DNA from: Moorena sp. SIO3A5
Lineage (GTDB): Bacteria > Cyanobacteriota > Cyanobacteriia > Cyanobacteriales > Coleofasciculaceae
DNA: 64,000 nucleotides
Direction of reading: 5' to 3'
NCBI RefSeq assembly: GCF_010672205.1
Contig: NZ_JAAHHD010000019.1
Location: 31,963 to 95,962 of the forward strand
This document shows, one piece after another, positions 6,599 to 57,689 of the stretch. The notes beneath the pieces were generated by a model. It did not search any database. It worked only from the letters and a program-made list of their open reading frames with translations, and had not been told where the DNA came from. Position 1 is the first letter of the stretch, and each line of letters starts with the position of its first letter. The position numbers and the translations under genes were made by a program.

Positions 6599-6780
6599 CC
6601 TAAGCAGCTTATACCCCACAGTGCATCTGACCCCAGCTAAAAATAAAGACGTATTAGGAAATAGCTGATCTAAACCTGTAGTTGACTAATGCCTTTTGTA
6701 ATTCAGGTGCCCTTGACCTTGGCGAATTAAATTCGCCAAGGGTCGCACCTCAGGATAGCCGATTAAAAACGATATTACCC

Positions 6781-22378: not shown

Positions 22379-23161
22379 CTACTGACCCAACGCCTCCGCA
22401 GTTTGACTCTCAACCTTATCAACCATAGTGTCACTATGAAGCATATAGTTGAGTTCACGATTGAGCCAATCCTGAAACAGTCTATCCAATATCTCGTCGT
22501 ACCTTTCCGGTGTTAATTCAGCAGGGATAAACCTTTCTACCATCAAGATATGATAACCCTGAGGAGTTTTGACCGGATTGACCACTTGTCCAATAGGTAC
22601 ACCAAAGACAATCGCTGCTATATCTGGACGTAAATTCCAACGGTAAAGCTTCCCTTCAAAACCGCACTTCTGTCGGCGTTGCTCATCAATGTCATAGATA
22701 TGAGCGGCTTGATAAAAGCTAATTTCTTTTTCTTCAATTTGATAGAAGAGTTCTTTGGAAAGTTTCTCGTTAGCTACAATAATTTGATAGAGCAAGATTT
22801 GGTCAAAATCTAGTCGGTTTTGACCAAAAAACTTTTCCACGTCTTTATCAAATAGAGATTTGGATAACTTTTTAGCTAGCAATTGCTGGCGAATTCCGGC
22901 TTCCCAGTCATCGGAAGTAATCATATTATCGGCTAGCCAAGCTAGAGTGTCTGAAGCCTTCTCCAAGCGATTTTGGTGACGGAATTTATCTGCCTCTTCC
23001 TGAATTTCTTCGGCGGTGACGGTTAGGTTTCTTTCGACAGCAGCTCGATTAATGACTTTTTGATACAAAATTTTCTCAGAGACGTCTTTTAGCTGGATTT
23101 CTCGTTTCAGAAACTCAGTAATTTCCTGTGGTTCAAGGGATGCTCTAGAAAGAATAGTCAT
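22379..23161 (-). CDS. parvulin-type peptidyl-prolyl isomerase-like protein (SurA-like N-terminal region plus PpiC domain), no signal peptide
   Basis: PpiC-domain pattern AAHIY...GFEGKLYRW...PVKTPQGYHILMVE. It is 55% identical to the paralog at 34690-35448. Confidence 0.65.
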   Translation of the reverse strand: MTILSRASLEPQEITEFLKREIQLKDVSEKILYQKVINRAAVERNLTVTAEEIQEEADKFRHQNRLEKASDTLAWLADNMITSDDWEAGIRQQLLAKKLSKSLFDKDVEKFFGQNRLDFDQILLYQIIVANEKLSKELFYQIEEKEISFYQAAHIYDIDEQRRQKCGFEGKLYRWNLRPDIAAIVFGVPIGQVVNPVKTPQGYHILMVERFIPAELTPERYDEILDRLFQDWLNRELNYMLHSDTMVDKVESQTAEALGQ

Positions 23162-25289: not shown

Positions 25290-25750
25290 TTTTGTTTTAC
25301 TTAACAACTTGGTTGTTGTTAGTTTTATTCTACCGCTTCTTATTCAATTTGTCTCACTTGTCAAGCCAATTTGGCGGAAACTTTAATTAAATTAGTTAGG
25401 TAGCTAAAAACAACTTGGTTGTTGTTATTTTTATCCTACCGCTCTTAATTTAATTTGTCTCACTTGTCAAGCCAATTTGGCGGGAACTTTAGTTCGACCC
25501 TTGATTAAGTTAGGTAGGTAGCTAAGAACAACTTTGGTTTTTGTTGTTGTTATTTTCATCCTACCGCTCTTAGTTGAATTTGTCTCACTTGTCACGCCAA
25601 TTTGGCGGAAACTTTAGCTCGATCCTTGATTAAGTTAGGTAGGTAGCTAACAACAATGGTTTTGTTGTTGTTATTTTTAACCTACCGTTATTAATTTAAT
25701 TTGTCTCACTTGTCAAGCCAATTTGGCGGTAAAGTTTTAGGGAGAGTTTA
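25290..25750. promoter_or_regulatory. five tandem ~118-bp repeats upstream of P1. Each carries a TTGACA-like box and the inverted repeat GCCAATTTGGC preceded by TGTCTCACTTGTCAA
   Basis: Read directly. The same TGTCTC...GCCAATTTGGC motif recurs upstream of P7 (38815-38845) and, with one mismatch, upstream of P4 (37228-37250). Confidence 0.45.
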
Positions 25751-25899
25751 ATGTTACAAATTGTTATGAAAAATGCCCAAGTTATGGAAAAATAACTTGG
25801 GAGTATTAATGCAATTTATGCAGTATCAAAAAATTAATAAAAAACAAAATATAGCAGTCGCCAGGGCAGTTAGGACATCGACATTAGTCTCAAACCTAA

Positions 25900-26450
25900 G
25901 TAAGCGCAAGAGTTTGACTTCTGACTTCTGACTTCTGACTTCTGACTTCTGACTTCTGCTATAAATTCAGCGATTGGGGGACTGTCAGCATTGAGCTATC
26001 AGCCCTGGTGAGGTGTAAGCATTCAGAATTCAGCACTCAGCACTCAGCACTCAGCAGTCAGCCTAATGCTGAAGTAACAGAGATTAAAGCAATGCTTACC
26101 TGTTTTATTCAGATGTAACTCAGCATTATTCCAATGCTTACCTGTTGTCTTGATGCAAAGCGCGAGTGGGGGAAACCACGGCAGTCGCTCATGGGGGAAA
26201 CCACGGCAGTCGCTCATGGGGGAAACCCCCAAGACCGCGCTGCCTCCCCAAGACCGCGCTGCCTCCCCAAGACCGCACTGCCTCCCCAAGACCGTAATGG
26301 TGCGTTTGACCCGTAATTTAATTCGCCACGGGTCGCACCTCTGCATCGCTTATTCAAAAGCATCTCAAGTAGCACCATCTGTAGGGCATTAGCTGATGAC
26401 TGATAGCTGATAGCTGATGGCTGATGGCTGATGGCTGATAGCTGAATACT
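25900..26450. repeat. STRR-like island with GACTTCT x7, CAGCACT x4, a tandem gggggaaaccacggcagtcgctcat / ccccaagaccgcgctgcct repeat block (26150-26300), a partial 41-bp palindromic element (26300-26345), and CTGATGG/CTGATAG heptamers
   Basis: Read directly. Flanked by gtaagcattcag (26020) and gctgaatacttac (26440). Confidence 0.85.
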
Positions 26451-26470
26451 TACGGTGAGATTACCAGTCC

Positions 26471-26878
26471 CTAGAAACACCTTATATTCCTAGTACTTGA
26501 GTATAATTTTGGCAATTTTTTGTTAAACCACTGTTCTTTAGAGCCCCCTTGAACTAGTTGGCTTCTGCTGTCAAGGGGCTTTGCATAGTCGAGATCTTTA
26601 ATGTTCCTTAAGCACTTCTGAGCATCTTCCCTATCCTGCTTAAGGCTGTCGGTTGTAGCTGGATTGAGTGAGTCCATTTTCTCGTTATCCCGTCGCAATC
26701 GGCAGTAGGTTCGCGACGGTATGTATTCTAAGGGGTTAAGACCCAAATAACGCAGCATCAAAACACAAGCCCAGGAATACTTGCGATCGCGAATTGCTTC
26801 TTCAATCAAACTAATCTTTTCAGGATCTAGGGTTTTGCCCAGTGGGCGATTAGAACGACGAAGCATGGAGTAACTCAT
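26471..26878 (-). CDS. HetP-like protein (paralog 1 of 3)
   Basis: The conserved core [34 protein letters not shown] recurs at 39849-40283 and 46524-46838. From memory it resembles the HetP N-terminal domain ([10 protein letters not shown]...[12 protein letters not shown]), and it sits downstream of a HetC-like PCAT as hetP does in Anabaena. Confidence 0.5.
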   Translation of the reverse strand: MSYSMLRRSNRPLGKTLDPEKISLIEEAIRDRKYSWACVLMLRYLGLNPLEYIPSRTYCRLRRDNEKMDSLNPATTDSLKQDREDAQKCLRNIKDLDYAKPLDSRSQLVQGGSKEQWFNKKLPKLYSSTRNIRCF

Positions 26879-27542: not shown

Positions 27543-29177
27543 CTATAGATTGACACCACCTTTTTGCAGCTGTCGGATCGGATCTAACAAGAAATCCACA
27601 ATCCGACGGCGGCGGATAATGATGTCAGCTTTGGCTGTCTGACCAGGTTTGAATCGGATCATTTGATCGTCTTCTGTAACGTAGTCACGGTTTAGGGAAA
27701 CTTCCACCTCATAAACCGAACCAAGTTGTTGATCAGTTTTGGCATCGGCAGAAAGGGAAGTGACTTTCCCTTTGATGATGCCGTATTCCTGATAGGGATA
27801 GGCATCAAGCTTGATTTGCACCGGCATTCCTTCTTTGATAAAGCCTGCCTCCTGATTAGGTAAACTAGCTGATAACACCAGGGGCGCATCTTGGGGCGCT
27901 ACTTCGGCAATGGTTTGACCGGGTTGAAAGACTTCACCAATATTGGCAACATTGAGGGAGGAAACTACTCCATCCACCGGTGCATAGAGAAACTTTTGTT
28001 TGAGCCTAGCTTTCGCACTAGTTAGCAGATTGCGGTTTTCAGCAATTTTGGCATTTAGTTGAGTCAGTTCGATCTCCAACTGCTGAAGTTTCTGCTTGGT
28101 CTCTAGCTGAGTCCGATGCACTTCCGCTTGCTTCTGAGTTAGACCTGCCTGAAGTCGTTGGATTTCTGCTAAGGTCTGGTTGAGATCGCTGTGAGTCAGA
28201 GTGATCGCGCTGTTGCGATCGCGTATACTCTGCTGGGCTTGATAAATCTGGTCTTGGTTACTGGCTGCTTCTTGCAGTTGGGTTTGGGTAATCACCCGCT
28301 GACTCGCTCGTAGGCTATGTTCTGCTTGAAATACTTGTTCTTTTGAGATTGCCCCTGATGCTAACAGGGGTTTGAGATTCTCTAGGCGTTCCTTAAGGGC
28401 AAATGCATCATCCTGTCGTTGCTGGAGCAGTGCTTGGGTAGTCGCCTTGAGCCGTTTTAGGCGTTCTAGTCTGTCCTGACTGGCGACGTTTGCCTGCTGA
28501 TGTTGGATCAGTTGTTCTCGTAAGGCGGCTACTTTAGTCTGTGCCTGAGCGATAGCGGCCTGTTGTGCGTCAATGTCCGCTTTGGCAATTTGCTGACGGG
28601 TTTGGGCTTCTTGGTGGATGTTTTCAATCAGCCCTTGCATCTGAATTAATTTGATTTGGTCAGCATTGATCAGTTGCTCCAAACGCTCTACTTCAGTAGC
28701 GCCAAGTTCTTTATCCAGTTCCACCAAGACTTGCCCAGCGGTAACCGATTCCCCTTCTTTGACCGCAATCTTGGCGACCTTGCCGGATTGGATCGGATGA
28801 ATTTTATACACTTCTCCTTTTGGCACTAACTTGCCTGTGGCTTTACCCACTTCGTCAATTTGGCCAAAGGTTGCCCAAACCCCACAGACCATACAGAAGG
28901 CGAATCCTCCCAAAAGCAGTCTCTGGGGCAGTACCGATGGTGGCTGATCCAGTAAATTTTGTAGGGCTGTTGACCAGTTTTCAGTGTTGGTAGCCCCTAG
29001 TGATGATGTTGGTGTGACCGGATTTTGAACATGATTAGCTGATTGGGGGAGTGGTGGTGCTGATACCGCTGTCCCCCCATAGATCGATCTAATCTCAGCT
29101 GAGGTTAGATTAGGGTGAGGGGTTTGTCCCTCAGGGAGTCCCTCTCTAGACGGGATAGATGGTTGTGGTTTGTTCAT
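27543..29177 (-). CDS. HlyD-family membrane-fusion/secretion adaptor protein
   Basis: N-terminal cytoplasmic tail, a single TM segment (LLLGGFAFCMVCGVWATFG), a long coiled-coil region, and the C-terminal beta domain typical of HlyD. Confidence 0.85.
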   Translation of the reverse strand: MNKPQPSIPSREGLPEGQTPHPNLTSAEIRSIYGGTAVSAPPLPQSANHVQNPVTPTSSLGATNTENWSTALQNLLDQPPSVLPQRLLLGGFAFCMVCGVWATFGQIDEVGKATGKLVPKGEVYKIHPIQSGKVAKIAVKEGESVTAGQVLVELDKELGATEVERLEQLINADQIKLIQMQGLIENIHQEAQTRQQIAKADIDAQQAAIAQAQTKVAALREQLIQHQQANVASQDRLERLKRLKATTQALLQQRQDDAFALKERLENLKPLLASGAISKEQVFQAEHSLRASQRVITQTQLQEAASNQDQIYQAQQSIRDRNSAITLTHSDLNQTLAEIQRLQAGLTQKQAEVHRTQLETKQKLQQLEIELTQLNAKIAENRNLLTSAKARLKQKFLYAPVDGVVSSLNVANIGEVFQPGQTIAEVAPQDAPLVLSASLPNQEAGFIKEGMPVQIKLDAYPYQEYGIIKGKVTSLSADAKTDQQLGSVYEVEVSLNRDYVTEDDQMIRFKPGQTAKADIIIRRRRIVDFLLDPIRQLQKGGVNL

Positions 29178-29347: not shown

Positions 29348-32300
29348 TTAAAGATCCAGCTGCTGCTGGGCTAGGTGGTAGTACAGACCTTTCTCAGCCA
29401 TGAGTTCGGAGTGGGTACCGCGCTCTGCGATCAGACCTTGGTCGAGGACCAGTATAGAGTCGGCATTGCGCACCGTAGAAAGACGGTGGGCAATGATGAA
29501 GGTAGTGCGATCGCGACTAATGCGAGCTAAATTTTGTTGAAAACGTCGCTCGGATTCTGTATCTAGGGAGCTAGTCGCTTCATCGAGAATCAGAATCTTG
29601 GGGTTACCCAGCAAGGCTCGGGCGATCGCAATCCGTTGCCGTTGTCCCCCAGACAGGTTAGACCCTCGCTCCCCAACCTTGGTGTTGTATCCCAGGGGCA
29701 GGTTTTGAATAAACACATGAGCTTCAGCCAATTTGGCAACTTCTACCCCTTGTTCGAGGCTATACTCAGGTTTGTATAAGGTGATGTTCTCTAAAATCGT
29801 CCCTGAAAACAAAAAGCATTCTTGAGGTACCACACCTAATTGAGAGCGCAAAGACTGGGGAGAAACATGTCGGATGTCGTGGCTATCAATCAAAATACGG
29901 CCTGTAGTTGGGTGATAGAGTCCTTGGAGCAGCTTGACCAAGGTACTTTTGCCCGAGCCACTGCGTCCGACAATGGCTATGGTCTTTCCAGGGGCAACCT
30001 CGAAGGAAATGTTTTGAAGGGTGTATTGTTCATCATCCTCACTATAGCGAAAGCTGACATTGTCAAACTGGACATGCCCCGCGATCGCAGGCAATGGCAT
30101 CAGGGGTTTTTGGGTATTCTCTTCTGGCTGGGTGGTCAAGACATCATCGAGCCGTTCCACCGATACCAAGATTTCCTGGAACTCATCCCAAAGTCCCACC
30201 AAAGACAAAATCGGGCTAATCACCCGACCAATGAGCATATTGAATGCCACAAATTGACCAATCGTGAGCTGTTCCTGAATTACCAGACTTGCCCCGAACC
30301 ACAGTAAAGCCGTGCCGCTGAGGTTATTAATCAACCCACTGACTGACCCTAAGCCGTTGGCCAAGTTCTGTCCTTTGAATACCATATTCAACTGACCCGT
30401 GAGGCGGTCTTCCCAGCGCCAGCGCACCTCTTGTTCAGAGGCTGCTGCTTTGACAGTTGCTACTCCCGACATCATTTCTACTAACAGGGAGTTTTGTGCT
30501 GCTGTTTCTTTAAAGATTTCCCTGGACACTTGGCGTAGAAATGGACTGGCAACTATGGTCAAAATCGCAATCGGTACAATCGTTGCCAGGACCAGCAAGG
30601 TTAGGTGCCAGTTGTAGTAGAGCATCAGCCCCACATAGACAAACATCATTACCACATCCAGCCAAGTAGCAATGGCTTGCTGAGTCAGGAACGCCTGAAT
30701 TTTCCCAGTTTCCTGGACTCGGGTCAGGATGTCCCCCACCTGGCGGGATTCAAAAAACTTCAGGGGTAGTGTGAGGGTATGCTTAATAAAACCACTGACA
30801 AAGGTAAGACTGAGTCGATTGGAAAAGTAATCCAGCAGGTAGCGTCTGGTGACACTCAAGCCTATGCTCCAAAGGCCAAAGATGACTAGACCAATTGCAA
30901 ACACATTGAGGGTAACAACACTTTTGTTAACCACCACCCGATCCAAAATGATTTGGGTAAACAGGGGGGTAATCAGACCAAAAACCTGGAGCAGTAGGGA
31001 AGCTAGGATAATTTGCAACAGGACTATGCGATGGGGCCATAGCAATCCCCAAAAGCGATTCAGAGAAATCTTTTGATTGGGAGTCCCTGCTAGCTGGGGA
31101 GTAGGATTCAACAGCAGCGCATATCCTGTCCAACCCTCTAGAAATTGTTGTCGAGAAAGCGTCCGCTTTCCCACAGCTGGATCCGCAACAAGTACCTTCT
31201 CCCCTTTGACCGAATAGACAACTATATAATGATCACCTTGCCAGTGAGCAATCCAGGGGTTACTCCGATCCGCTAGGCGAGCTAAAGACGCTCTAACTGG
31301 AGTAGCTTGAAATCCCAAGGTTTCTGATGCTCTGGCTAACCCTTTCAGGGATGACCCAGAACGCCCCACCCCTGCCAGATTCCGTAGGGAATTCAAGCTA
31401 AATCGTTTGCCCCAGTAGCGTCCAATCATTGCCAAGCAAGCAGCGCCACAATCTGAAGAGGATTGCTGTTCAATGAAGGGATAGCGTTGCCACAACCCCT
31501 GAATAAAAGGTCGCTTCGTCGGTACGGGAAATGGTATCAGTTTAGACTCAGCCTGGGTCGAGTTACTTTGTGTTTCAGCATTTCCATTGGTAGGGAGGTT
31601 GGATGGAATTAGCGGTACTCTGTGACCGGGCTGAGTACGGACTGGGTGGACTATGGCGCTAGTCGCCCCTGATTTCTGGTGTCCATTTTCAGAGGTTTGA
31701 CCCGTCTGTGGACTCAACTTTGCCAGCACCGGTGCCATCATTTGGGCAGTTTCCCAATGTTCCTTTGGTAGATGGGTTACCCATAAATCGCTTTGAGCAA
31801 TCCAATCTTCCGGCACTGGCTGAGGATAGCCCCAACTTTCGCCCCTTGCAATAGTTAGTGGGCAATTCTGTTGAACTCCGCCCCTTTCAATCTGACCACT
31901 ACGTAGCCAGTAACGACCAACTTGGCCAGACTTAACTAAGGACTCCCCAGCGGAAATCCGTGTGTCTACCAGGTAGGGCAACAATTGCTGTAGAGTGATG
32001 CTGTCAAGCGATCGCAATGCTGTTAAGGTCTTGAAGAAAATCAAGCGTTGCCGGTGCTGAGCTTGTTGCTGTAGGTGTTCGAGCCACTCCGGTAGCTGTT
32101 CTAACCAAGGTTGCAGTTCAGCTAAGGACATCCGAGCAATCTGTCCTGAACTCGCTGCGATCGCTTGGTAAGGATAAGATAGGTTGCACAACAGTTCCTC
32201 AGCCCCAAAGGTTGCCCCCTCTTCAAGAACCTGTACGGATACGTCCCGCTGTTTTTCACCATCAAAGCTTAGCAGCCGCACCCGCCCGCAACAGACCACG

Positions 32301-32560
32301 TAAAAATACTTATTTGGTTCATTTTGAACATAATTTTGGCTTAACTCCCGTCTAGGATAGGGTATAATTTCATCACCTAGATCAAAGTTATGAATTTGGA
32401 AGGATTGACTAAATTCTGGTAATAGTGTATTTGATAGGGTCTTATCCAACCAGTTCGCGATTAGGTGTTCAATAACCTCGGAAGATTTCTGGGTCGGGTA
32501 TTGGCCAAGGGAATCTGGTGGTTGCCCTGATTTTTCTAAACCGACCGTTTTCTGATGCAT
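29348..32560 (-). CDS. HetC-like peptidase-containing ABC transporter (PCAT) with two N-terminal cyclic-nucleotide-binding-like domains, a C39 peptidase, ABC TMD and NBD
   Basis: C39 catalytic-Cys context SSDCGAACLAMIGRYWGKRF. The Walker A motif GRSGSGKST, the ABC signature LSGGQRQR and the Walker B motif ILILDEATS are present. N-terminal cNMP-binding-like repeats are present. Confidence 0.85.
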   Translation of the reverse strand: MHQKTVGLEKSGQPPDSLGQYPTQKSSEVIEHLIANWLDKTLSNTLLPEFSQSFQIHNFDLGDEIIPYPRRELSQNYVQNEPNKYFYVVCCGRVRLLSFDGEKQRDVSVQVLEEGATFGAEELLCNLSYPYQAIAASSGQIARMSLAELQPWLEQLPEWLEHLQQQAQHRQRLIFFKTLTALRSLDSITLQQLLPYLVDTRISAGESLVKSGQVGRYWLRSGQIERGGVQQNCPLTIARGESWGYPQPVPEDWIAQSDLWVTHLPKEHWETAQMMAPVLAKLSPQTGQTSENGHQKSGATSAIVHPVRTQPGHRVPLIPSNLPTNGNAETQSNSTQAESKLIPFPVPTKRPFIQGLWQRYPFIEQQSSSDCGAACLAMIGRYWGKRFSLNSLRNLAGVGRSGSSLKGLARASETLGFQATPVRASLARLADRSNPWIAHWQGDHYIVVYSVKGEKVLVADPAVGKRTLSRQQFLEGWTGYALLLNPTPQLAGTPNQKISLNRFWGLLWPHRIVLLQIILASLLLQVFGLITPLFTQIILDRVVVNKSVVTLNVFAIGLVIFGLWSIGLSVTRRYLLDYFSNRLSLTFVSGFIKHTLTLPLKFFESRQVGDILTRVQETGKIQAFLTQQAIATWLDVVMMFVYVGLMLYYNWHLTLLVLATIVPIAILTIVASPFLRQVSREIFKETAAQNSLLVEMMSGVATVKAAASEQEVRWRWEDRLTGQLNMVFKGQNLANGLGSVSGLINNLSGTALLWFGASLVIQEQLTIGQFVAFNMLIGRVISPILSLVGLWDEFQEILVSVERLDDVLTTQPEENTQKPLMPLPAIAGHVQFDNVSFRYSEDDEQYTLQNISFEVAPGKTIAIVGRSGSGKSTLVKLLQGLYHPTTGRILIDSHDIRHVSPQSLRSQLGVVPQECFLFSGTILENITLYKPEYSLEQGVEVAKLAEAHVFIQNLPLGYNTKVGERGSNLSGGQRQRIAIARALLGNPKILILDEATSSLDTESERRFQQNLARISRDRTTFIIAHRLSTVRNADSILVLDQGLIAERGTHSELMAEKGLYYHLAQQQLDL

Positions 32561-34689: not shown

Positions 34690-35448
34690 TTATTCCCCAG
34701 TATTGATGGTACTAATTTCACTATGGATCATATAGTTAACTTCACTATTGAGCCACTCTTGAAACATACTCTGTAAAATTTCTTTAGACTTTTCTTCGGT
34801 TAATTCAGCTGGAATAAATTCTTCAACTAAGAAAAGATGATATCCTTGTTCGGTTTGCAGGGGATGAGTCACTTCTCCTGGCTGAACACTAAAGATAAGG
34901 GCAGCTATCTCAGGCTTAAAACTCCAACGAGGCAACTTTCCTTCATAGCCACACCGTCGCTGCCTTTCTGGGTCTATATCATAGAAATGAGCAGCTTCAT
35001 AAAAACTGATTTCTCCTTCCTCAATCTGATAGAAAAGCTCCTGAGCAATTTCCTCAGAATCCACCAGAATTTGATAAACCAAAACTTGCTCAAAGTCCAG
35101 TCGATTTTGAGCAAAGCTTTTTTCCACATCTTTATAAAATAAGGACTCAGCAAGCTTTTGGGCAAGCAAGCGATCGCTAATTCCCGCTTCCCAATCCTCT
35201 GCTGTCACCATCTGATCTGCCAGCCAGGCCAATGTTTCTGCTGCCTTTTCCAAACGATTGGCATAACGGATCTCATCCGCCTGAGCTTGCACGTCTTCTG
35301 GTGTGACTGTTATCCCTCTTTCTTGAGCCGCTTTATTGATAACTCGTTGATACAAAACTTTTTGACAGATGCCCTTCAGATGCATCTCCTTTTTCAAGGA
35401 GTACATAATTTCCTCTGGAGTCACCGATGCTTTGGAAAGGTCAACCAT
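34690..35448 (-). CDS. parvulin-type PPIase-like protein (paralog 2)
   Basis: Same architecture as 22379-23161; GYHLFLVEEF parvulin motif. Confidence 0.65.
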   Translation of the reverse strand: MVDLSKASVTPEEIMYSLKKEMHLKGICQKVLYQRVINKAAQERGITVTPEDVQAQADEIRYANRLEKAAETLAWLADQMVTAEDWEAGISDRLLAQKLAESLFYKDVEKSFAQNRLDFEQVLVYQILVDSEEIAQELFYQIEEGEISFYEAAHFYDIDPERQRRCGYEGKLPRWSFKPEIAALIFSVQPGEVTHPLQTEQGYHLFLVEEFIPAELTEEKSKEILQSMFQEWLNSEVNYMIHSEISTINTGE

Positions 35449-36275: not shown

Positions 36276-36563
36276 TTATCCAATCAAACGATAAATCCCA
36301 AAGGGATCATGGACAGAATAACCCCAGTAATGACGATCCCTAGCCCTAGCCTCAGCTTTTGCCCTAGCTTCAGAAAAGAACTCGTCTACATGGATAAAGC
36401 TTTCTACGGAAGTATCGGTATGCTGAGCTAACGCATCGGCCTGAGCATTAGTGGCACCAATGCCAGGACCAGCGAAGGCTTCAGCAGTAGTAAAAACAAA
36501 ACCACCTAAAATAGGGTGGTCTGTTGCCTGTAGCTCAAAATATTCTAATTGAGCAATTTTCAT
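36276..36563 (-). CDS. double-glycine leader precursor protein P3 (leader MKIAQLEYFELQATDHPILGG)
   Basis: GG at residues 20-21 with Leu/Glu/Ile spacing approximating the class-II leader consensus. The core has the GATNAQADALAQHTDTS segment similar to the other cores. Confidence 0.45.
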   Translation of the reverse strand: MKIAQLEYFELQATDHPILGGFVFTTAEAFAGPGIGATNAQADALAQHTDTSVESFIHVDEFFSEARAKAEARARDRHYWGYSVHDPFGIYRLIG

Positions 36564-36868: not shown

Positions 36869-37156
36869 TTAGTAATAATGCTTCTTATTCTTAGAAGAAC
36901 TAACAGATATTGTACTTAGGGTAGATTGAGAACCATGCTCAGTAGTGGTAGTACTGCCAGTGACGTTAGTGAAGGTCTTCTCACCAAAGGCTTGTGCGCG
37001 GCCATCAATCGTAGCTACGTTCTCTTCAATGTCAATACCGACGTTGATAAATTTGTTAAATCCGAAAGGGAAGTAAGGTTGGTAGTAGCCATATCCACCC
37101 ACAACTTTGGGGTCTTCAGCAATAGTTTCTAAATGATTTAGATCAGAAATAATCAT
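36869..37156 (-). CDS. double-glycine leader precursor protein P4 (leader MIISDLNHLETIAEDPKVVGG)
   Basis: Conserved ISDLNHLE leader and GG at positions 20-21; 74-aa core rich in Tyr/Phe/Gly then Ser/Thr. Confidence 0.6.
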   Translation of the reverse strand: MIISDLNHLETIAEDPKVVGGYGYYQPYFPFGFNKFINVGIDIEENVATIDGRAQAFGEKTFTNVTGSTTTTEHGSQSTLSTISVSSSKNKKHYY

Positions 37157-37444: not shown

Positions 37445-37777
37445 CTAACGGCTGATAGCAGAGAAGCCAATACCTACAGACTTGGAACCAGTTACTCCAC
37501 CTTGCTCAATAGTGATGAAGACGCTTTCTTGCTTAGTAGCAACGTTATTACCTTTATCGCTAGAAGCTTCAGATGTAACACCACCTGAAGCGGTAATACC
37601 ATTAATGTCTACACGAGAGATAATGCTGGTATTGAAAACTTCAGTTTCGGTGATGGTGCTGGTGGTGTTGAAAACGCTGGTGACATTGTTGTTGAATGTG
37701 ATTCCAGCAATAGTAGTACCACCTTGAACTTGGCTAGCGTCAACGGATTCTAGATGGTTTAGATCAGAAATAAGCAT
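37445..37777 (-). CDS. double-glycine leader precursor protein P5 (leader MLISDLNHLESVDASQVQGG; Thr/Ser/Asn/Gly/Ile-rich 90-aa core)
   Basis: First of three tandem paralogs about 90% identical (P5/P6/P7). The leader fits the class-II double-glycine consensus (L-15, L-12, E/D-8, V-4, GG). Confidence 0.65.
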   Translation of the reverse strand: MLISDLNHLESVDASQVQGGTTIAGITFNNNVTSVFNTTSTITETEVFNTSIISRVDINGITASGGVTSEASSDKGNNVATKQESVFITIEQGGVTGSKSVGIGFSAISR

Positions 37778-37981: not shown

Positions 37982-38317
37982 TTAATGACGGCTGATTCCA
38001 GAGAAGCCAATACCTACGGACTTGGAACCAGTTACTCCACCTTGCTCAATAGTGATGAAGACGCTTTCTTGCTTAGTAGCAACGTTATTACCTGCATCGC
38101 TAGAACCTTCAGATGTAGTACCACCTGAAGCGGTAATACCATTAATGTCTACGCTAGAGGTAATGCTGGTATCGAAAACTTCAGTTTCGGTGATGGTGCT
38201 GGTGGTGTTGAAAACGCTGGTGACATTGTTGTTGAATGTGATTCCAGCAATAGTAGTACCACCTTGAACTTGGCTAGCCTCAACGGATTCTAGATGATTT
38301 AAGTCAGAAATAAGCAT
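37982..38317 (-). CDS. double-glycine leader precursor protein P6
   Basis: MLISDLNHLESVEASQVQGG leader; paralog of P5 and P7. Confidence 0.65.
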   Translation of the reverse strand: MLISDLNHLESVEASQVQGGTTIAGITFNNNVTSVFNTTSTITETEVFDTSITSSVDINGITASGGTTSEGSSDAGNNVATKQESVFITIEQGGVTGSKSVGIGFSGISRH

Positions 38318-38395: not shown

Positions 38396-38728
38396 CTAAC
38401 GGCTGATTCCAGAGAAGCCAAGACCTACAGACTTGGAACCAGTTACGCCACCTTGCTCAATAGTGATGAAGACGCTTTCTTGCTTAGTAGCAACGTTATT
38501 ACCTTGATCGCTAGAACCTTCAGATGTAGTACCACCTGAAGCGGTAATACCATTAATGTCTACGCTAGAAGTAATGCTGGTATTGAAAACTTCAGTTTCG
38601 GTGATGGTGCTGGTGGTGTTGAAAACGCTGGTGACATTGTTGTCGAATTGGATTCCAGCAATAGTAGTACCACCTTGAACTTGGCTAGCCTCAACGGATT
38701 CTAGATGGTTTAAGTCAGAAATAAGCAT
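38396..38728 (-). CDS. double-glycine leader precursor protein P7
   Basis: MLISDLNHLESVEASQVQGG leader; paralog of P5 and P6. Confidence 0.65.
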   Translation of the reverse strand: MLISDLNHLESVEASQVQGGTTIAGIQFDNNVTSVFNTTSTITETEVFNTSITSSVDINGITASGGTTSEGSSDQGNNVATKQESVFITIEQGGVTGSKSVGLGFSGISR

Positions 38729-39848: not shown

Positions 39849-40283
39849 TCACCACAGGGAAACCAAACAGTCTTGCCGTAAATAATCGGTTAACTTCTTG
39901 AGGATGGATTCCTCTTCTTCCAGTTCAGTGATTAAGCACTGTTCTTGATCGCCACCGTGGACCTGTGAAGTTTTCTTGCCAAGGGTCTCTACATAAGCCA
40001 GATCTTTGATCTGGCTCAAACGCTGCCGTGCATTCAAGACTTTATTGCTATTGGTCATCATACTAGCTTGCTTCTGTAAGATCATGTCCCGGTTTTGTTT
40101 GAGCAAGCGGCTGTAGGTTCTAGAAGGCATGTAGTCTAGGGGGTTATGGCCTGCCAAGCGTAGCATTAACACACAAGCCCAAGAATATTTGCCATCAAGG
40201 ATGGCTTCCTCGATCTCGCTAAACTTATCAATATCCATCATTTTGTCGAGCTTGGTATTGGCAGAAGGAATACGATAGGTCAT
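39849..40283 (-). CDS. HetP-like protein (paralog 2)
   Basis: [34 protein letters not shown] core. Same position downstream of HlyD/PCAT as paralog 1. Confidence 0.5.
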
Positions 40284-40455: not shown

Positions 40456-42057
40456 CTATAGATCGATGCCGCTTTTTTGCAGTTGTCGCATCGGATCCAA
40501 TAAGAAATCGATAATCCGACGGCGGCGGATGATGATGTCAGCATTGGCGGTTTGACCAGCCTTAAACCGGATGATTTCATCCTCTTCAATCACATAGTCA
40601 CGGTCGAGGGACACTTTCACCTTATAGACTGAACCCATTACTTGATCGGCTTTAGCATCGGAAGAGATGGAAATCACCGTGCCTTTGATGATGCCGTAAT
40701 CCTGATAGGGATAGGCATCAAATTTCACTTGCACCGCCATTCCTTCGTTAATAAACCCTGCCTCGCGAGTAGGCAAACTTGCGGATAGCACTAAGGGGGC
40801 ACCTTGAGGAGCGATTTCGGCGATGCTACGTCCCGGTTGCACGACTTCACCAGCATTACCAATGTTGAGGGAAGATATTATCCCATCCACTGGCGCTTTG
40901 AGAAACTTCTGTTTGAGCCTGGTTTTAGCAGTAGTAACCAGGGTTTCATTTTCAGAAATTCTAGCTTTGATTTGGGTCAGTTCCACTTCCAACTGTTGAA
41001 TTTTCTGCTGTGCTTCCAGGCGAGTGGTGCGTCCCGTTGCTTGCCGATGCTCTAATTCTGCCTCTAGTCGCTTAATTTCTGCTAAAGTTTGTTGTAGCTC
41101 ACCTCGGCTTTGGCTAGTCGCCGCTTCGCGATCGCGTATACTTTGCTGAGCTTGAAAGATCTGTTCGCGAGTACTCAAACCCTCTTGCAGTTTGCTTTCG
41201 GTAACAGCACTTTGGCTAGCACGAAAGCTTTGTTCTGCTTGAAATACCTGTTCTTTCGAGATTGCTCCTTCTGCCAACAGAGGCTTAAGGTTATCGAGTC
41301 GTTCCTTGAGAGCCACTACATTAGCCCGCCGTTGCTGGAGCAGTTCTTGGGCTGTCGCCTGCACCAGCTTCATCCGTTGTAATCGTTCGCGATTAGCAGC
41401 TTTAGCTAACTGATGTTGAATGATTTGTTGTCTAATTGCCGATGCACTAGCTTGTGCTCGTGCGATCGAAGCTTGTTGTGCTTGAACTTCTGCTTGGGTA
41501 ATCTGCTCACGAGTTTCTACTTCTAGACGGGTTCTTTCAAGCAGTCCTTGCATCTGAACTAACCTAATCCGGTCTGCATTAAGAACTTTCTCTAAACGTT
41601 CTACTTCCTGAGTGGCAAGCTCTGTATCCAGTTCCACCAAGACTTCCCCAGCTTTAACCGCTTGCCCTTCTTTGACCTTAATACTAGCAATCTTGCCTGG
41701 CTCAATCGGGTCAACTTTATAAACGTCGCCTTTTGGCACTAAGCTTCCATGAGCTTTACCGACTTCATCAATCTGCCCAAACGTTGCCCAAGCCACAAAT
41801 ATCGTACAGAAGCTTAATCCACCCAACATCAAGAGCCGGGGAAGGTTCGCCGGAGGCTGGTCGAGGGTAGTTTGTATCGAGGTTGACCATTTGGACGTAC
41901 TAGGAGCATTGGCAGTATTGCTTCCTACCTCTGTGCTGGGTGAGCCTGGCTCTTGGTCATAATCAGGTCTCAGGCGACCTGATGGCATTAAAACGACGTT
42001 ACCCTGACGACTCGTAGCCGCCTCAGGTGGGGAGTTGATTGGTTTTGCTTGTGTCAT
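40456..42057 (-). CDS. HlyD-family secretion adaptor protein (paralog 2)
   Basis: About 70% identical to 27543-29177 over the TM, coiled-coil and beta domains. Confidence 0.85.
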   Translation of the reverse strand: MTQAKPINSPPEAATSRQGNVVLMPSGRLRPDYDQEPGSPSTEVGSNTANAPSTSKWSTSIQTTLDQPPANLPRLLMLGGLSFCTIFVAWATFGQIDEVGKAHGSLVPKGDVYKVDPIEPGKIASIKVKEGQAVKAGEVLVELDTELATQEVERLEKVLNADRIRLVQMQGLLERTRLEVETREQITQAEVQAQQASIARAQASASAIRQQIIQHQLAKAANRERLQRMKLVQATAQELLQQRRANVVALKERLDNLKPLLAEGAISKEQVFQAEQSFRASQSAVTESKLQEGLSTREQIFQAQQSIRDREAATSQSRGELQQTLAEIKRLEAELEHRQATGRTTRLEAQQKIQQLEVELTQIKARISENETLVTTAKTRLKQKFLKAPVDGIISSLNIGNAGEVVQPGRSIAEIAPQGAPLVLSASLPTREAGFINEGMAVQVKFDAYPYQDYGIIKGTVISISSDAKADQVMGSVYKVKVSLDRDYVIEEDEIIRFKAGQTANADIIIRRRRIIDFLLDPMRQLQKSGIDL

Positions 42058-42559
42058 GGTGGTAGATCACGCTAAATTAACATTTTAGGGAAATGACCAA
42101 TGTTTTGGGAAAGAAAGCGACCAATTCTCGTGCTGCCCTTAGCTTCCCGGGGTGAGTTTGGTATTGTTGGGCAGGCCGAAATCTTTGGCATTACCTGACT
42201 CTACTTGCCCCTTTTTCAGATAGCTTCAATGCACCCCGAGATCAGAACTTAAACCCTTCCCCTTTAAGTAGCCGTCGGTCGGTCAAACCTATTGCCTGAG
42301 CACGCTGTGAGGTGTGGACTTGAGCAGGACTGACCCTAGGGTTAGGCTCTCCAAGTTACCTGCGTCTCACCTTTAGTGGGGTGCATGGGAATGAATTAAA
42401 CAAAGGAATTGGAATTAAACTCTCCGGTGAGTGTGCGTCATGGAGAATTCTCAGGGGATTCTAAACGGTGGTTACGAAATGGGTGTGGAGCCATATCTGA
42501 ACACGTTTTCATCCCCTTATATTCACACAGGGCTTTTCCACTTTTCTGATAAAAGATCA

Positions 42560-42860
42560 ATTTCATCTGAGTATGTTGCTAAATTGGCAGATTTTTGGCA
42601 GCTTTTTACAAAGCTTGACATAGTGATAGCTAGCTTCAAATTTCATTAATTATTAGTCATTAGTCATTAGTCCTTTTCACATGACTGTGTTGCCAAATTG
42701 GCAAATTTTTACATAGTTTGATATAGTCATAGGTAGCTTCAAATTTTCTTAGTCATTAGTCCTTTGTGACTAACCAGGGTCTATGGGGATTTACAAATGA
42801 CTAATGACTAAATAACTAATAACTAATAACTAATGACTAATGAGCACTTGTTAACGATCT
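42560..42860. repeat. two ~100-bp tandem repeats plus ttagtcattagtcatt / aactaat heptamer arrays in an ~800-bp spacer between HlyD-2 and PCAT-2
   Basis: Read directly. The equivalent spacer in locus 1 is only ~170 bp. Confidence 0.75.
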
Positions 42861-42861
42861 A

Positions 42862-45800
42862 TTAAAGATCTAGCTGCTGCTGTGCTAGATGATAGTAAAG
42901 ACCTTGACGATCCATGAGTTCCTGATGGTTGCCTTTCTCGACCAGAACACCTCGGTCTAGGACAAGGATGCAGTCAGCATTGCGCACTGTAGAGAGGCGG
43001 TGGGCGATGATGAAGGTAGTGCGATCGCGACTAATGCGAGCTAAGTTTTGTTGAAAGCGGCGCTCGGATTCTGTATCTAGGGAGCTAGTCGCTTCATCCA
43101 GAATCAGAATCTTGGGGTTGCCCAATAGGGCTCGGGCTATGGCAATCCTTTGTCGCTGTCCACCAGAAAGGGTAGAGCCTCGCTCTCCTACTTTTGTATT
43201 ATATCCCAAAGTCATACCTTGAATAAAAGCATGAGCTTCTGCTAGTTTGGCTACCTCTACGGCTTCATCCAGGCTGAAATCCGGTCGGTAGAGAGTGATA
43301 TTTTCGACAATTGTCCCCGAGAACAAGAAACATTCTTGGGGTACCACACCCATTTGAGAACGCAAAGATTGGGGGGAAATATGGCGGATATCGTGTCCAT
43401 CTATCAAAATACGACCATTAGTCGGATGATAGAGACCTTGCAGTAGCTTCACCAAGGTACTCTTGCCAGAGCCACTGCGCCCCACTAGAGCAATGGTTTC
43501 TCCAGCCCTAATCTGTAGGGAAATATTCTGTAGGATATTGCGATCCTCATCCTCGGAGTATCGGAAGGTAACATCTTCCAATATTACATCACCCTTAATC
43601 TCAGGTAGAACCAACATTGGTTCTTGAGGATTCTCCTCTGGCTTAGCAGATAAGACATCATTAAGCCGTTCTACAGACACCAAGATTTCTTGAAACTCAT
43701 CCCAAAGATTCACTAGAGCCAAAATCGGACCAGTGACTCGGCCAATGAGCATATTAAACGCGACATACTGACCGATAGTAAGCTGCTCATTAATTACTAA
43801 GCTAGCGCCAAACCAAAGCAAAGCGGTGCTGCTGAGAGTATTAATTAGAGAACTAATTGACCCTAACCCGTTAGCCAGGTTTCTACCTTTAAATTGTACA
43901 TTCAACTGATTGGTGAGGCGATCTTCCCAGCGCCAGCGCACTTCTTGTTCCGAAGCCGCCGTTTTCACAGTAGCAACCCCTGACATCATTTCCACTAACA
44001 TAGAATTTTGTTGGGCTGCTTCTTTAAAGATTTCCCTGGACACCTGGCGTAGAAAGGGACTGGCAATCACAGTCAAGATGGCGATGGGGAAAATCGTTGC
44101 CAGCACCAGCAAGGTTAAGCGCCAATTGTAGTAGAGCATTAGTCCAATATAGACAAACACCATCACCACATCTAGCCAAGTCGCAATCGCTTGCTGAGTT
44201 ATAAAACCCTGAATTTTTCCAGTTTCCTGAATTCGGGTCAGGATATCCCCCACCTGGCGGGATTCAAAAAACTTCAGGGGTAAGGTCAGGGTATGGTTAA
44301 TGAAGCCACTGACGAAGGTGAGACTAAGCCGATTGGAAAAGTAGTCCAGCAAGTAGCGTCTGGTGAGACTAACCCCAATCGTCCAAAGGCCAAAGATGAT
44401 TAGACCAATGGAGAAGACATTGAGAGTGACAAGGCTTCTGTTAATAATCACCCGGTCAAGAATGATCTGGGTAAATAAGGGAGTAATCAGACCAAAAACC
44501 TGAAGGATGAGGGTAGCCAAGATAATTTGCAGCAGGACTGAGCGATGGGGCCATAGCAATCCCCAAAACGGCCCTAAAGAACGTTTGTCGCTGGGAGTAA
44601 TTGCTAGTTGGGGAGTTGGATCCAATAGCATGGCATACCCAGTCCAACTTTGGAGAAAGTCTTTGCGAGCAAGCGATCGCTTCCCCACTGCTGGATCGGC
44701 AACGAGTACCTTATTACCCTTTACCTGGTAGACAACAATATAGTGATCTCCTTGCCAGTGAGCAATCCAAGGATTACTCCGATCCGCTAAGCGACCTAAA
44801 GAAGCCCTGACTGGACTAGCTTGAAACCCTAAACTTTCCGCTGCTTTAGCTAAACCTTTGAGGGATGAACCAGAACGACCCACTCCCGCCAGTTCCCGCA
44901 GGGAGTTGAGAGCAAAGCGTTTGCCCCAATACTGCCCAATCATGGCTAAGCAGGCAGCACCACAATCAGAAGAAGCTTGCTGCTCAATAAAAGGATAGCG
45001 CTGCCAAAACCTTAGGAATCTCCCACCCGGCTTTGCTGGTTTGGGAAAATCAAAGCTTTCTGACTGACTGGGTTCAAGGGGCGTTTGTTGCTTAGGAGTT
45101 TCTAAAACTCGCCGAGTCGGTCGTGCTCTAGTCTGGTTTGCATGTGGTGACGGAGTATGGGTCTTGTTAACTACGCCTTGATCCGATGGAGATTTACCGT
45201 CACCATTTTTAGCACTTTGCCTGTTCTCCTGATCCGGTGACTCGGTGGAGTTAGCCAAAACTGGTGCGATCGCGCAAGCCGCTTGCCAATGCTCTTGAGG
45301 CAGCTGGTAAAGCAATACATCAGTTTGGGCAATCCAATCTGTGGGTACTGGCATCGGATATCCCCAACTTTCTCCGATGCTAGGAAATGGAGCAGAGGAA
45401 TTTGCCTCTGTTCCTTCTGGCGTTCCCATTTGACCACTACGTAGCCAGCAATGACCAGCTTGGGAAGAGGACACCAGAGACTCCCCAGCCTCAATGCGTG
45501 TTTCTACGATGTAGGGCAACAGTTGATTTATGGTAACACCGTTAAGCGATCGCAAATTGGTCAAAGTCTTGAAGAAAATTAGGCATTGCCGGTGCTGGGC
45601 TTGTTTCCCCAGGATTTCCGACCACTTTGGCAACCGTTCCAACCAAGGCAAGAGTTGATTTAGGGAAATACGAGCAACTTGTCCTGAACTCGCTGCGATC
45701 GCTCTGTAAGGATAGGATAGACTACCTAAGAGATCATAGGCACCAAAAGTTTCCCCTTCTTCGAGTACCTGTATGGAAACCTCCCGCTGTTTTTCAGCAT

Positions 45801-46089
45801 CAAAGCCTAGTAGTCGTACCCGACCCTGACAAACTAGGTAAAGATATTGGTGATCTTGTTCAATCTCAACAGAATCTTGGGATAGCTCTGGTTTAGTATA
45901 GGCAAGGATTTTATCCCCTAGCTGGAAGTGATCAAGGTCAAATGATTGACTAAATTCGTAGTTGAGCTTTGGATCGACTGAGTCTAGGGTCAAGCTTTGA
46001 AGCACCACTGATAAATTGCTAGCAGGGTCTGGGTTGATAGAAGACGGTGGTTTACTAGGCTCTGCTGAATCCCTGATTATATTCTTCAT
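42862..46089 (-). CDS. HetC-like PCAT with N-terminal cNMP-binding-like domains (paralog 2)
   Basis: C39 motif SSDCGAACLAMIGQYWGKRF; GRSGSGKST / LSGGQRQR ABC motifs; about 75% identical to 29348-32560 over the C39-TMD-NBD region. Confidence 0.85.
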   Translation of the reverse strand: MKNIIRDSAEPSKPPSSINPDPASNLSVVLQSLTLDSVDPKLNYEFSQSFDLDHFQLGDKILAYTKPELSQDSVEIEQDHQYLYLVCQGRVRLLGFDAEKQREVSIQVLEEGETFGAYDLLGSLSYPYRAIAASSGQVARISLNQLLPWLERLPKWSEILGKQAQHRQCLIFFKTLTNLRSLNGVTINQLLPYIVETRIEAGESLVSSSQAGHCWLRSGQMGTPEGTEANSSAPFPSIGESWGYPMPVPTDWIAQTDVLLYQLPQEHWQAACAIAPVLANSTESPDQENRQSAKNGDGKSPSDQGVVNKTHTPSPHANQTRARPTRRVLETPKQQTPLEPSQSESFDFPKPAKPGGRFLRFWQRYPFIEQQASSDCGAACLAMIGQYWGKRFALNSLRELAGVGRSGSSLKGLAKAAESLGFQASPVRASLGRLADRSNPWIAHWQGDHYIVVYQVKGNKVLVADPAVGKRSLARKDFLQSWTGYAMLLDPTPQLAITPSDKRSLGPFWGLLWPHRSVLLQIILATLILQVFGLITPLFTQIILDRVIINRSLVTLNVFSIGLIIFGLWTIGVSLTRRYLLDYFSNRLSLTFVSGFINHTLTLPLKFFESRQVGDILTRIQETGKIQGFITQQAIATWLDVVMVFVYIGLMLYYNWRLTLLVLATIFPIAILTVIASPFLRQVSREIFKEAAQQNSMLVEMMSGVATVKTAASEQEVRWRWEDRLTNQLNVQFKGRNLANGLGSISSLINTLSSTALLWFGASLVINEQLTIGQYVAFNMLIGRVTGPILALVNLWDEFQEILVSVERLNDVLSAKPEENPQEPMLVLPEIKGDVILEDVTFRYSEDEDRNILQNISLQIRAGETIALVGRSGSGKSTLVKLLQGLYHPTNGRILIDGHDIRHISPQSLRSQMGVVPQECFLFSGTIVENITLYRPDFSLDEAVEVAKLAEAHAFIQGMTLGYNTKVGERGSTLSGGQRQRIAIARALLGNPKILILDEATSSLDTESERRFQQNLARISRDRTTFIIAHRLSTVRNADCILVLDRGVLVEKGNHQELMDRQGLYYHLAQQQLDL

Positions 46090-46523: not shown

Positions 46524-46838
46524 CTAGACCTTACTAACAACCTGTGATTGTGAGACAGGGGTTTTGCCAACTGGATGCTTACCAGATTGACTATTTTCTT
46601 TGATTAAGCGATTGTAGGTTCGGTAAGGGATGTAATGGAGGGGGTTGTAACCAGAAAAACGCAGAACTAACACACAAGCCCAAGAATACTTGCCCGCGAT
46701 GATAGCTTCTACGACCTGGTTAAGCTGCTCATTATTCATGACTTGTTCAGAGCTCGTAGAGGTTGACGTTGGTTGAGATGTTCTACTAGTTGATGGTCTA
46801 CTAGTTATTGAGAGTAATTTTTTGGCCATGGTAGTCAC
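46524..46838 (-). CDS. HetP-like protein (paralog 3) with an N-terminal Ser/Thr-rich extension
   Basis: [41 protein letters not shown] is a match to my recollection of the HetP N-terminal domain. It is located just upstream of PCAT-2. Confidence 0.55.
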
Positions 46839-57134: not shown

Positions 57135-57689
57135 TTAGTTTGCTCCATTGCCAATAAATCCCATTACTAGGCTGTCCGGAGCCAGGAAATGACTCAAGTG
57201 ATAAGCTCGCTCTTCAGTCTTGAGCAAGATTTTCTCATAGAGATAGCGGGTGGCTCGATCGCCCAGGCTTTCTGCTTGAGCGGCTTGACTGCGTACTAAC
57301 TGAATGATTGACTGCTCAGCTGCTAAGTCATGCTCTACCATCTGGCGAGAGTTGTAAACTCCATCAGATTCAGGAGTGAAGCAGCACAATTCAGCTAATT
57401 TGGCAAAACTAGTAGCTGGAATTCCTCCTAGTCCATTCAAACGCTCTCCTAAGTCATGGACATGGTCTTGAGCATCCTCGTAGCTTTCTTCAAAGAACTT
57501 ATGCAAGGAGTAAAATTCTGATCCTTCCACAACAAAGTGGTGTTTTTGATATTGCAGATACAACCCTTGGAAGCTGGCTAAAGCTATGTTTAATCCTTCA
57601 CAAACTGGGGTAGTAACGTTTTTTTCCAGCAAAATTGGATTGTCAGCAATTTCACCAAAGGAGCGTAGTAGACCCTGAGTTGTAGACAT
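57135..57689 (-). CDS. dps: Dps-family DNA-protection/ferritin-like protein
   Basis: [24 protein letters not shown]...[10 protein letters not shown] ferroxidase-site region. Confidence 0.8.

Follow-up and report, generated by a model that had tools for sequence, protein, structure and literature searches.

Long-form HetP genes in two HetC-type export clusters of Moorena carry an internal block that resembles cargo leaders

Three HetP-family genes on the minus strand

We analyzed a 64,000-nucleotide (nt) stretch of Moorena sp. SIO3A5 DNA (contig NZ_JAAHHD010000019.1, positions 31,963 to 95,962; hereafter the window), in which a preliminary description had proposed three small open reading frames (ORFs) as paralogs of the Anabaena protein HetP, tied to HetC-like exporters. 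The window holds two tandemly duplicated HetC-type export clusters with HetP-like genes as standing components. In the two longer HetP copies, we found an internal block ending in Gly-Gly that resembles the leaders of the cargo encoded beside them.

The three ORFs are present at 26471-26878, 39849-40283, and 46524-46838, as described before; their strand, which had not been given, is minus in every case. They share a common core, with (V/I)EEAI..(G/R) at its start and (I/M)P.RTY.RL at its end, and all three exceed the curated cut-off of 45 bits of the NCBIfam model for HetP family heterocyst commitment proteins (NF037966). An absence of significant similarity to HetP had been named as grounds for dropping the family assignment; alignment instead gave 37-64% identity to a near-Anabaena reference, the 159-amino-acid (aa) HetP of the Nostoc locus L025, which is nearly identical to alr2818 over the stretch shown in Wang et al. 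Figure S1A. The three copies and their parts are as follows.

26471..26878, minus strand: HetP-A, long form, 135 aa; NF037966 74.0 bits, E = 5e-21; 37% identity over 117 aa to the near-Anabaena HetP
26543..26602, minus strand: HetP-A internal leader-like block IKDLDYAKPLDSRSQLVQGG, residues 93-112
26474-26542, minus strand: HetP-A tail, basic, 23 aa, C-terminal to the block
39849..40283, minus strand: HetP-B, long form, 144 aa, 172 nt downstream of HlyD-2; NF037966 93.3 bits, E = 5e-27; 41% identity over 143 residues to the same reference, collinear to the end
39951..40010, minus strand: HetP-B internal leader-like block, residues 92-111
39852-39950, minus strand: HetP-B tail, acidic, 33 aa, C-terminal to the block
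46524..46838 (probable ATG at 46829), minus strand: HetP-C, short form, 101 aa, N-domain only, without Gly-Gly block or tail; NF037966 118.7 bits, E = 6e-35; 64% identity to the same reference across the 67-residue N-domain

The family core, including NP..Y.P.RTY.RL, is present in copies A, B, and C, as is the Cys of KYSWACVL that had been singled out earlier, which is invariant in an alignment of 40 family sequences. HetP-A is the most diverged copy: in its core, R replaces the G before KYSW, and C replaces N/S in RTYxRL. Stand-alone proteins of the family range from 80 to 206 aa. For HetP-C, two starts come into question, a GTG at 46838 and an ATG at 46829; the ATG is the more likely, since it yields 101 aa, the length of the 96%-identical Moorena orthologue P0042. 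HetP-B matches, at 100% identity, a Moorena protein that NCBI lists under the name HetP family. In precomputed annotations, database relatives carry Pfam PF28069; an older Pfam-A release, which lacks this entry, had no model matching the three ORFs.

Short tandem repeats adjoin HetP-A (25915-26445; units of 7, 14, 19, and 25 nt, e.g., TGACTTC, CCCCAAGACCGCGCTGCCT, GCTGATAGCTGATG) and are typical of cyanobacterial repetitive DNA. They create spurious ORFs (26044-26346, 26134-26316, 26150-26392, and 26214-26480), and false ORFs of this kind, such as the first and last of these, are what would favor dismissing the HetP-like ORFs as non-coding artefacts of repeat-rich DNA with spurious similarity. 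We give that reading virtually no chance: it is refuted by the HMM (hidden Markov model) E-values, by orthologues of the copies in other Moorena genomes at 90-100% identity, and by the size of the family, which comprises 1,937 clusters at 90% identity. All three ORFs are genuine HetP-family genes.

Two tandemly duplicated export clusters

Read along the minus strand, the genes are HetP-C, PCAT-2, HlyD-2, HetP-B, five cargo genes, PPIase-2, PCAT-1, HlyD-1, HetP-A, one cargo gene, and PPIase-1, where PCAT denotes a peptidase-containing ABC exporter and PPIase a peptidyl-prolyl isomerase. The earlier placement of the three HetP copies agrees with this map: HetP-A (26878-26471) lies downstream of HlyD-1 (29177-27543), HetP-B (40283-39849) downstream of HlyD-2 (42057-40456), and HetP-C (46829-46524) 435 nt upstream of PCAT-2 (46089-42862) on the same strand.

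42862..46089, minus strand: PCAT-2, HetC-type exporter, 1075 aa, with cyclic-nucleotide-monophosphate (cNMP)-binding, C39 peptidase, ABC membrane, and ATPase domains (Pfam)
40456..42057, minus strand: HlyD-2, type I secretion periplasmic adaptor, 533 aa; TIGR01843 249.9 bits, cut-off 208.65
38396-38728, 37982-38317, 37445-37777, 36869-37156, and 36276-36563, minus strand: five cluster-2 cargo genes with N-terminal double-glycine leaders, MLISDLNHLESVEASQVQGG and similar
34690..35448, minus strand: PPIase-2, SurA/PpiC-like rotamase, 252 aa, last gene of cluster 2; Pfam Rotamase E = 3.8e-11
29348..32560, minus strand: PCAT-1, HetC-type exporter, 1070 aa, 71% identical to PCAT-2 (Pfam, tree, catalytic motifs)
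27543..29177, minus strand: HlyD-1, type I secretion periplasmic adaptor, 544 aa; TIGR01843 256.9 bits
24968..25267, minus strand: cluster-1 cargo gene, leader MNISDLNHIEVVNEETNIVGG
22379..23161, minus strand: PPIase-1, SurA/PpiC-like, 260 aa, last gene of cluster 1; NCBIfam TIGR04500 and PrsA-type partial matches

The two clusters are paralogous: besides the PCATs, the HlyDs are 62%, the PPIases 60%, and HetP-A and HetP-B 47% identical. Both are complete, with a long PCAT, HlyD, a SurA-like PPIase, and double-glycine precursor genes, and by this content they look like group I bacteriocin clusters plus HetP. Neither cluster contains a further enzyme-sized ORF that might encode a modification enzyme (an M16 peptidase, for example). 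The catalytic Gln/Cys, His, and Asp motifs occur in both PCATs (QQ(S/A)SSDCG, GDHYIVVY, and VADP), and their C39 domains are predicted to be catalytically competent. One additional candidate leader, at 57189-57299, was judged a chance match, antisense within another ORF. Moorena is a filamentous marine cyanobacterium without heterocysts; a heterocyst-commitment role therefore cannot apply, and the family name cannot describe the function of these genes here.

An internal block resembling the cargo leaders

The 40-sequence alignment shows that a long-form HetP protein begins with an invariant N-domain, continues with a variable linker and then a conserved block of consensus I-K-D-L-x-Y-L-E-x(8-10)-[IV]-x-G-G, and ends in a short tail. 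Most long-form family members have the block at the same position. In the window, the cargo leaders (MLISDLNHLESVEASQVQGG, MNISDLNHIEVVNEETNIVGG) resemble the internal blocks of HetP-A and HetP-B, which are 20 residues long; the common pattern is I-K-D-L-x-Y-x-x-...-[V/L]-x-G-G. Much of the setting has been described: Wang et al. 2011 (PMC3140520) reported HetP-like proteins beside bacteriocin clusters, including alr2818 and asl1930, with HetP skewed to group II clusters; they published the motif KIxDLxYLEx10GG as a proposed cleavage site, listed alr2818 among the 'HetP substrates', and classed the HetP-like proteins as precursors. The linkage and the motif are thus already published, and NCBI records already call the proteins HetP family.

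An HMM built from 29 non-redundant cargo leaders only (from the window and related loci) was searched against 13,638 ORF segments. Right below the true cargo ORFs, HetP proteins fill almost every rank from about 45 to 132, and the alignment to them always falls on the same internal block. This enrichment is unmistakable in the ranking, even though the individual E-values, given further below, are weak.

We then measured conservation in 96 long forms sharing at most 50% identity. The N-domain carries 3.06 bits per column, the block 2.18, the linker 0.96, and the tail 0.63. The block is exactly 20 residues long in 75 of the 96 proteins, and position -4 is V, I, L, or M in 83; positions -2 and -1 are GG in 91 and GS in the other five, with the long-form search pattern itself demanding G followed by G, A, or S. 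HetP-A reads LVQGG and HetP-B QVHGG at this point, both hydrophobic at -4. Such a pattern of -4 residue, Gly-Gly, and length is the signature of a predicted site for C39 recognition and cleavage.

AlphaFold2 modeled HetP-B with a three-helix N-domain (predicted local distance difference test, pLDDT, about 90-96), a linker and block with pLDDT below 55 that are predicted to be flexible and accessible, and a tail predicted as helical with moderate confidence. A sequence search of the PDB returned no relative (best E = 0.3, a coiled-coil protein), and Foldseek with the N-domain returned no significant fold match (best E about 3). A helix-turn-helix reading of the N-domain is unsupported, no DNA-binding fold having been matched.

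The preliminary description had treated the HetP-like proteins as regulators and had overlooked the block, which makes HetP-A and HetP-B candidate substrates or ligands of the exporters; a regulatory role in Moorena itself would be an extrapolation. A metagenomic family member (P0037, 125 aa) shows the opposite layout to HetP-A and HetP-B, with a predicted double-glycine-leader-like N-terminal extension (MKITLFTDLTLSEQAKPSGG...) ahead of its HetP domain, and is a single case.

Short forms and an independent N-domain

Among the 150 best representatives out of 320 at 50% identity, long forms make up about two-thirds; the remainder, 80-125 aa long, are short forms that lack the block. One metagenomic protein (P0160, 169 aa) has two tandem HetP N-domains, the only multi-domain architecture among these 150. 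We sampled three short-form loci (P0065 from Lyngbya aestuarii, P0078, and P0132), and in all three the short form occupies the identical slot: PCAT, HlyD, HetP, and then leader-bearing small ORFs, with a PPIase called after the cargo in two. No leader-like remnant was found downstream of the sampled short forms or, in any frame, downstream of HetP-C, and a recent truncation of a long form as the origin of the short forms was rejected on that ground. Similarly, the 93-aa asl1930 was placed in a group II cluster beside asl1933-1935 (Wang et al. 2011 Table S3, PMC3140520). Since short forms without the block hold the same slot, the N-domain has a role of its own in the cluster and is more than a leader: it is the constant cluster component, and the block and tail are an optional module.

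These data bear on the reading of Wang et al. 2011, by which HetP-A and HetP-B would be exported precursors with a very long leader, a functionless N-domain, and the tail as product. Beyond the published precursor classification with its KIxDLxYLEx10GG motif, it draws on the conserved leader-like block followed by a hypervariable tail, which is the expected leader/core pattern, and on the position of both genes, first after HlyD and directly ahead of the other cargo genes. We nevertheless consider it improbable, because forms with neither block nor tail fill the same slot at all three sampled loci, as asl1930 does in Anabaena, and because the N-domain is the most conserved part of the protein. 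It also fits poorly with the intracellular role of Anabaena HetP and with Nostoc paralogues that retain the block away from any PCAT, 16 loci having none upstream.

Linkage and reduction of the module across cyanobacteria

A family scan with one genome per species yielded at least 589 members, of which we analyzed the best 80 loci. Of the 80, 61 loci from many genera have a full-length same-strand PCAT no more than 4 kb upstream. Such a PCAT is lacking in 16 although the flank was available, five of which have a PCAT downstream instead, and three loci were indeterminate. The suggestion that the window mirrors and extends the Anabaena hetC-hetP adjacency therefore stands as to the mirroring, since the order is widespread, but there is little extension, the linkage having been published by Wang et al. 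2011.

HlyD separates PCAT and HetP to a varying degree in these 61 loci: it is full-length in 15, represented by partial matches in 24, and absent in 22. All 15 loci with a full-length HlyD belong to non-heterocystous genera or metagenome bins. In Fischerella, Stigonema, and Chlorogloeopsis, the partial match is an intact, shortened ORF of 294-435 aa in which the two ends of HlyD (N-terminal, about residues 20-145; C-terminal, about 360-540) are retained and the central coiled-coil is missing. Such shortened HlyD genes between the hetC-like and hetP-like genes are found at the following positions.

L011, 9057-9941: shortened HlyD
L015, 9011-9931: shortened HlyD
L030, 8892-9905: shortened HlyD
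L036, 8621-9928: shortened HlyD
L039, 9023-9937: shortened HlyD

Nostoc-type loci such as L025 have lost the gene entirely. HlyD has been lost stepwise from the hetC-hetP module in heterocyst formers, where leader-bearing cargo genes are mostly absent as well. Both losses fit an ancestral module that was later reduced, and the hetC-hetP pair of Anabaena resembles what would remain, after such losses, of the complete PCAT-HlyD-HetP-cargo-PPIase module that the window still holds. The idea of an ancestral exporter/regulator module with its cargo still attached, put forward in the preliminary description, gains support from the complete clusters here together with the reduction in heterocyst formers. 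PatC as a relic cargo is unsupported: the PatC-like ORFs after hetP in L025 have no Gly-Gly leader.

In a neighbor-joining tree of 75 PCATs, built without bootstrap support, both window PCATs group with the PCATs encoded ahead of hetP, including those of heterocyst formers, and this hetP-linked clade is separate from a second Nostocales PCAT clade. HetC itself combines cNMP-binding, C39, and ABC domains (Rachedi et al. 2024, PMC10986499), and calling the window exporters HetC-like proves apt on both counts, architecture and clade; at 1070 and 1075 aa they also lie within the span of about 1,040-1,080 aa for this type.

A second, distinct PCAT-HlyD-PPIase cluster is often found 3-5 kb downstream of hetP in Nostocales (e.g., L011, L012, L017, L023, L024, and L056), so tandem cluster pairs are common. 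The pair in the window arose by a separate, lineage-specific duplication.

A palindrome that follows intact HlyD

The palindrome GCCAA-N-TTGGC has 21 matches in the window with at most one mismatch, where 1.5 are expected; 35 sites were found in 1.5 Mb.

25365, 25471, 25596, 25717, 29727, 38825, and 42692: exact palindromes
37242, 39001, and 39167: near-matches

Upstream of the cluster-1 cargo gene, four tandem repeat units of 117 nt (25309-25777) each contain the palindrome followed by a promoter-like GAGACA-N17-TAGAAT oriented toward the cargo gene, and this stretch looks like a tandem array of putative promoters or operators. Related loci of other genera have the palindrome between PCAT and HlyD and also ahead of cargo genes, 94-115 nt before their starts. 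PCAT-2 and HlyD-2 are separated by an unusually long spacer (42058-42861), about 800 nt versus about 170 nt in cluster 1, and this spacer contains the palindrome at 42692; the cluster-1 counterpart at 29727 falls within PCAT-1, at its 3' end. Other genera, too, have long PCAT-HlyD spacers containing the palindrome. Within the window, counts of promoter-like and terminator-like elements were not above shuffled expectation, and an Rfam search of 20000-48000 matched no family.

The palindrome matters for the main rival to cleavage, in which the HetP proteins would be uncleaved cytoplasmic regulators of cluster transcription, perhaps at GCCAA-N-TTGGC, with the block as a docking or interaction motif or a relic. 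We think this alternative rather doubtful. HetP acts intracellularly and has been described as a nonspecific DNA-binding protein that is required for promoter occupancy by sigma-HetZ (2026 PNAS, PMC13342950), its homologues Asl1930, Alr2902, and Alr3234 are thought to work via protein-protein contacts (PMC9045159), short forms work without the block, and the palindrome is enriched just upstream of promoter-like hexamers before cargo genes, all of which suit an uncleaved regulator. Across the 80 loci, however, the palindrome occurs in 13 of the 15 with intact HlyD and in only five of the 65 others (p = 2.5e-9). We found no link of HetP to the GCCAATTTGGC motif, a binding that had earlier been put forward for testing: the motif follows intact HlyD rather than the presence of HetP and is missing from most loci that keep HetP. 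Nor did the N-domain match a helix-turn-helix or other DNA-binding fold. The constrained hydrophobic -4 position, the Gly-Gly, and the fixed 20-residue length of the block suit a C39 site and are not explained by a relic, and docking pure and simple is at odds with polar localization in Anabaena that did not need the C39 domain.

A proposed mechanism for long-form HetP

We propose that a cytoplasmic HetP domain is tied to the exporter and that long forms are cut after the internal Gly-Gly by the cognate PCAT, a reading whose chances we judge evenly balanced. The C39 domain of that PCAT would recognize the internal leader of HetP-A or HetP-B and cut after the Gly-Gly (G112 in HetP-A, G111 in HetP-B). 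The N-domain, with the leader, would be retained in the cytoplasm as a regulator or accessory factor, and the tail would be either exported or discarded. The activity of the exporter, which the cNMP-like domain may gate, could thereby be coupled to the state of the regulator and to an intracellular response. HetP-C would be a leaderless form that is not processable and may act constitutively or modulate HetP-A and HetP-B. By analogy with Anabaena, the HetP N-domain probably acts intracellularly as such a regulator or accessory factor.

Work on HetC gives this proposal a context. HetC and HetP functions are linked (Corrales-Guerrero et al. 2014, PMC4133259). The cNMP-like domain of HetC binds guanosine tetraphosphate (ppGpp) in vitro; the substrate of HetC has been called unknown and its identification 'the next crucial step', with no leader-bearing gene near hetC; and the authors' model has an N-terminal fragment staying in the cell and a C-terminal fragment being exported (PMC10986499). 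By extension, long-form HetP proteins in general, including Anabaena HetP, could be two-part pro-proteins and the missing physiological substrate of HetC-type PCATs, with the N-domain kept as a regulator and the tail exported. This wider proposal is tentative, and we rate it as possible but short of probable.

Several observations weigh against cleavage. The leader-HMM E-values of individual blocks are weak (0.007-15), on account of the shortness of the motif and of its middle part, basic in HetP and acidic in the cargo leaders. The leader is internal, with about 90 residues preceding the block (which starts at residue 93 in HetP-A and 92 in HetP-B), unlike that of classical substrates, and a few lineages have a degenerate Gly-Gly (e.g., RSG, RGRG, and NSG). 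At 0.63 bits, the tail is so poorly conserved that a specific signaling role for it is doubtful. With no fold match for the N-domain, the case for a regulator comes from the Anabaena literature. There, a 3- to 4-fold higher hetP expression bypasses a hetC peptidase-domain mutant, so that extra HetP works without the HetC peptidase, and HetP-GFP localization is unchanged in the hetC peptidase mutant (PMC4133259). Finally, about one-third of the representatives lack the block and keep the genomic slot, and cleavage therefore cannot be essential to the core function of the family.

To a specialist, the locus itself is unsurprising, since the cluster belongs to a known kind and the host is what is new, and if HetP is not cleaved it is an ordinary example of the cluster type described in 2011. 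New here are the leader-similarity test, the slot shared by short and long forms, the placement of the PCATs in the HetC-type clade, and the reductive series of HlyD. HetP, encoded beside hetC, carries a block resembling the genuine cargo leaders of sister clusters such as the two in the window, which sharpens a testable proposal for the HetC substrate that recent HetC work has not considered. If HetP were cleaved by HetC, this would explain the genetic and physical linkage of hetC and hetP and offer a concrete mechanism for commitment to differentiation. The complete clusters of non-heterocystous cyanobacteria such as Moorena would then show the role of the module before heterocysts, and PCAT-HetP would be an ancient secretion-coupled regulatory switch across cyanobacteria that was later recruited for heterocyst commitment.

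Remainder of the window

Outside the two clusters, the window is ordinary chromosomal DNA, with SRP54, URO-D, PmbA/TldD, and kinase genes. The plus strand encodes a 1,403-aa protein that combines TPS secretion and CHAT protease domains (6682-10893) and a 485-aa TnpB/Cas12f-like protein (2565-4022), neither of them related to the export clusters.

Comparison with known systems

The closest counterpart is the hetC (alr2817)-hetP (alr2818) pair of Anabaena/Nostoc PCC 7120, which agrees with the window in both protein families, in their order and shared strand, and in the PCAT domains. Anabaena-type HetP is likewise a long form, with the same N-domain, a IKDLAYLEVVGKQTTEIHGG block, and a tail. L025, a locus of the Anabaena type, lacks HlyD altogether and shows no cargo gene with a leader after hetP. 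In the window, by contrast, both clusters are complete, each with its own HlyD and PPIase; together they hold six cargo genes, and there is an additional short HetP copy.

The group I and group II bacteriocin clusters (Wang, Fewer, Sivonen 2011) share with the window the long PCAT, HlyD, the SurA-like PPIase, double-glycine precursors, and an adjoining HetP-like gene. There, HetP-like proteins were treated as precursors only, whereas the short forms and the conservation profile described here indicate an independent function of the N-domain.

Double-glycine leaders of the classical type (ComC, colicin V, lactococcin-type) resemble the HetP block in Gly-Gly at -2/-1, a hydrophobic -4, an amphipathic upstream pattern, and an intact C39 Cys/His in the exporter. 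Classical leaders are N-terminal, whereas that of HetP-A and HetP-B is internal, about 90 residues in, and basic rather than acidic in its middle. A nearer parallel in layout comes from the NHLP and Nif11-type proteins, which are long-leader precursors exported by PCATs: like long-form HetP, they have a domain-sized N-terminal region, a Gly-Gly site, a short variable C-terminal peptide, and an adjacent C39-ABC exporter. They bear no sequence relationship to HetP, whose N-domain, unlike theirs, also occurs alone and is an intracellular regulator in Anabaena.

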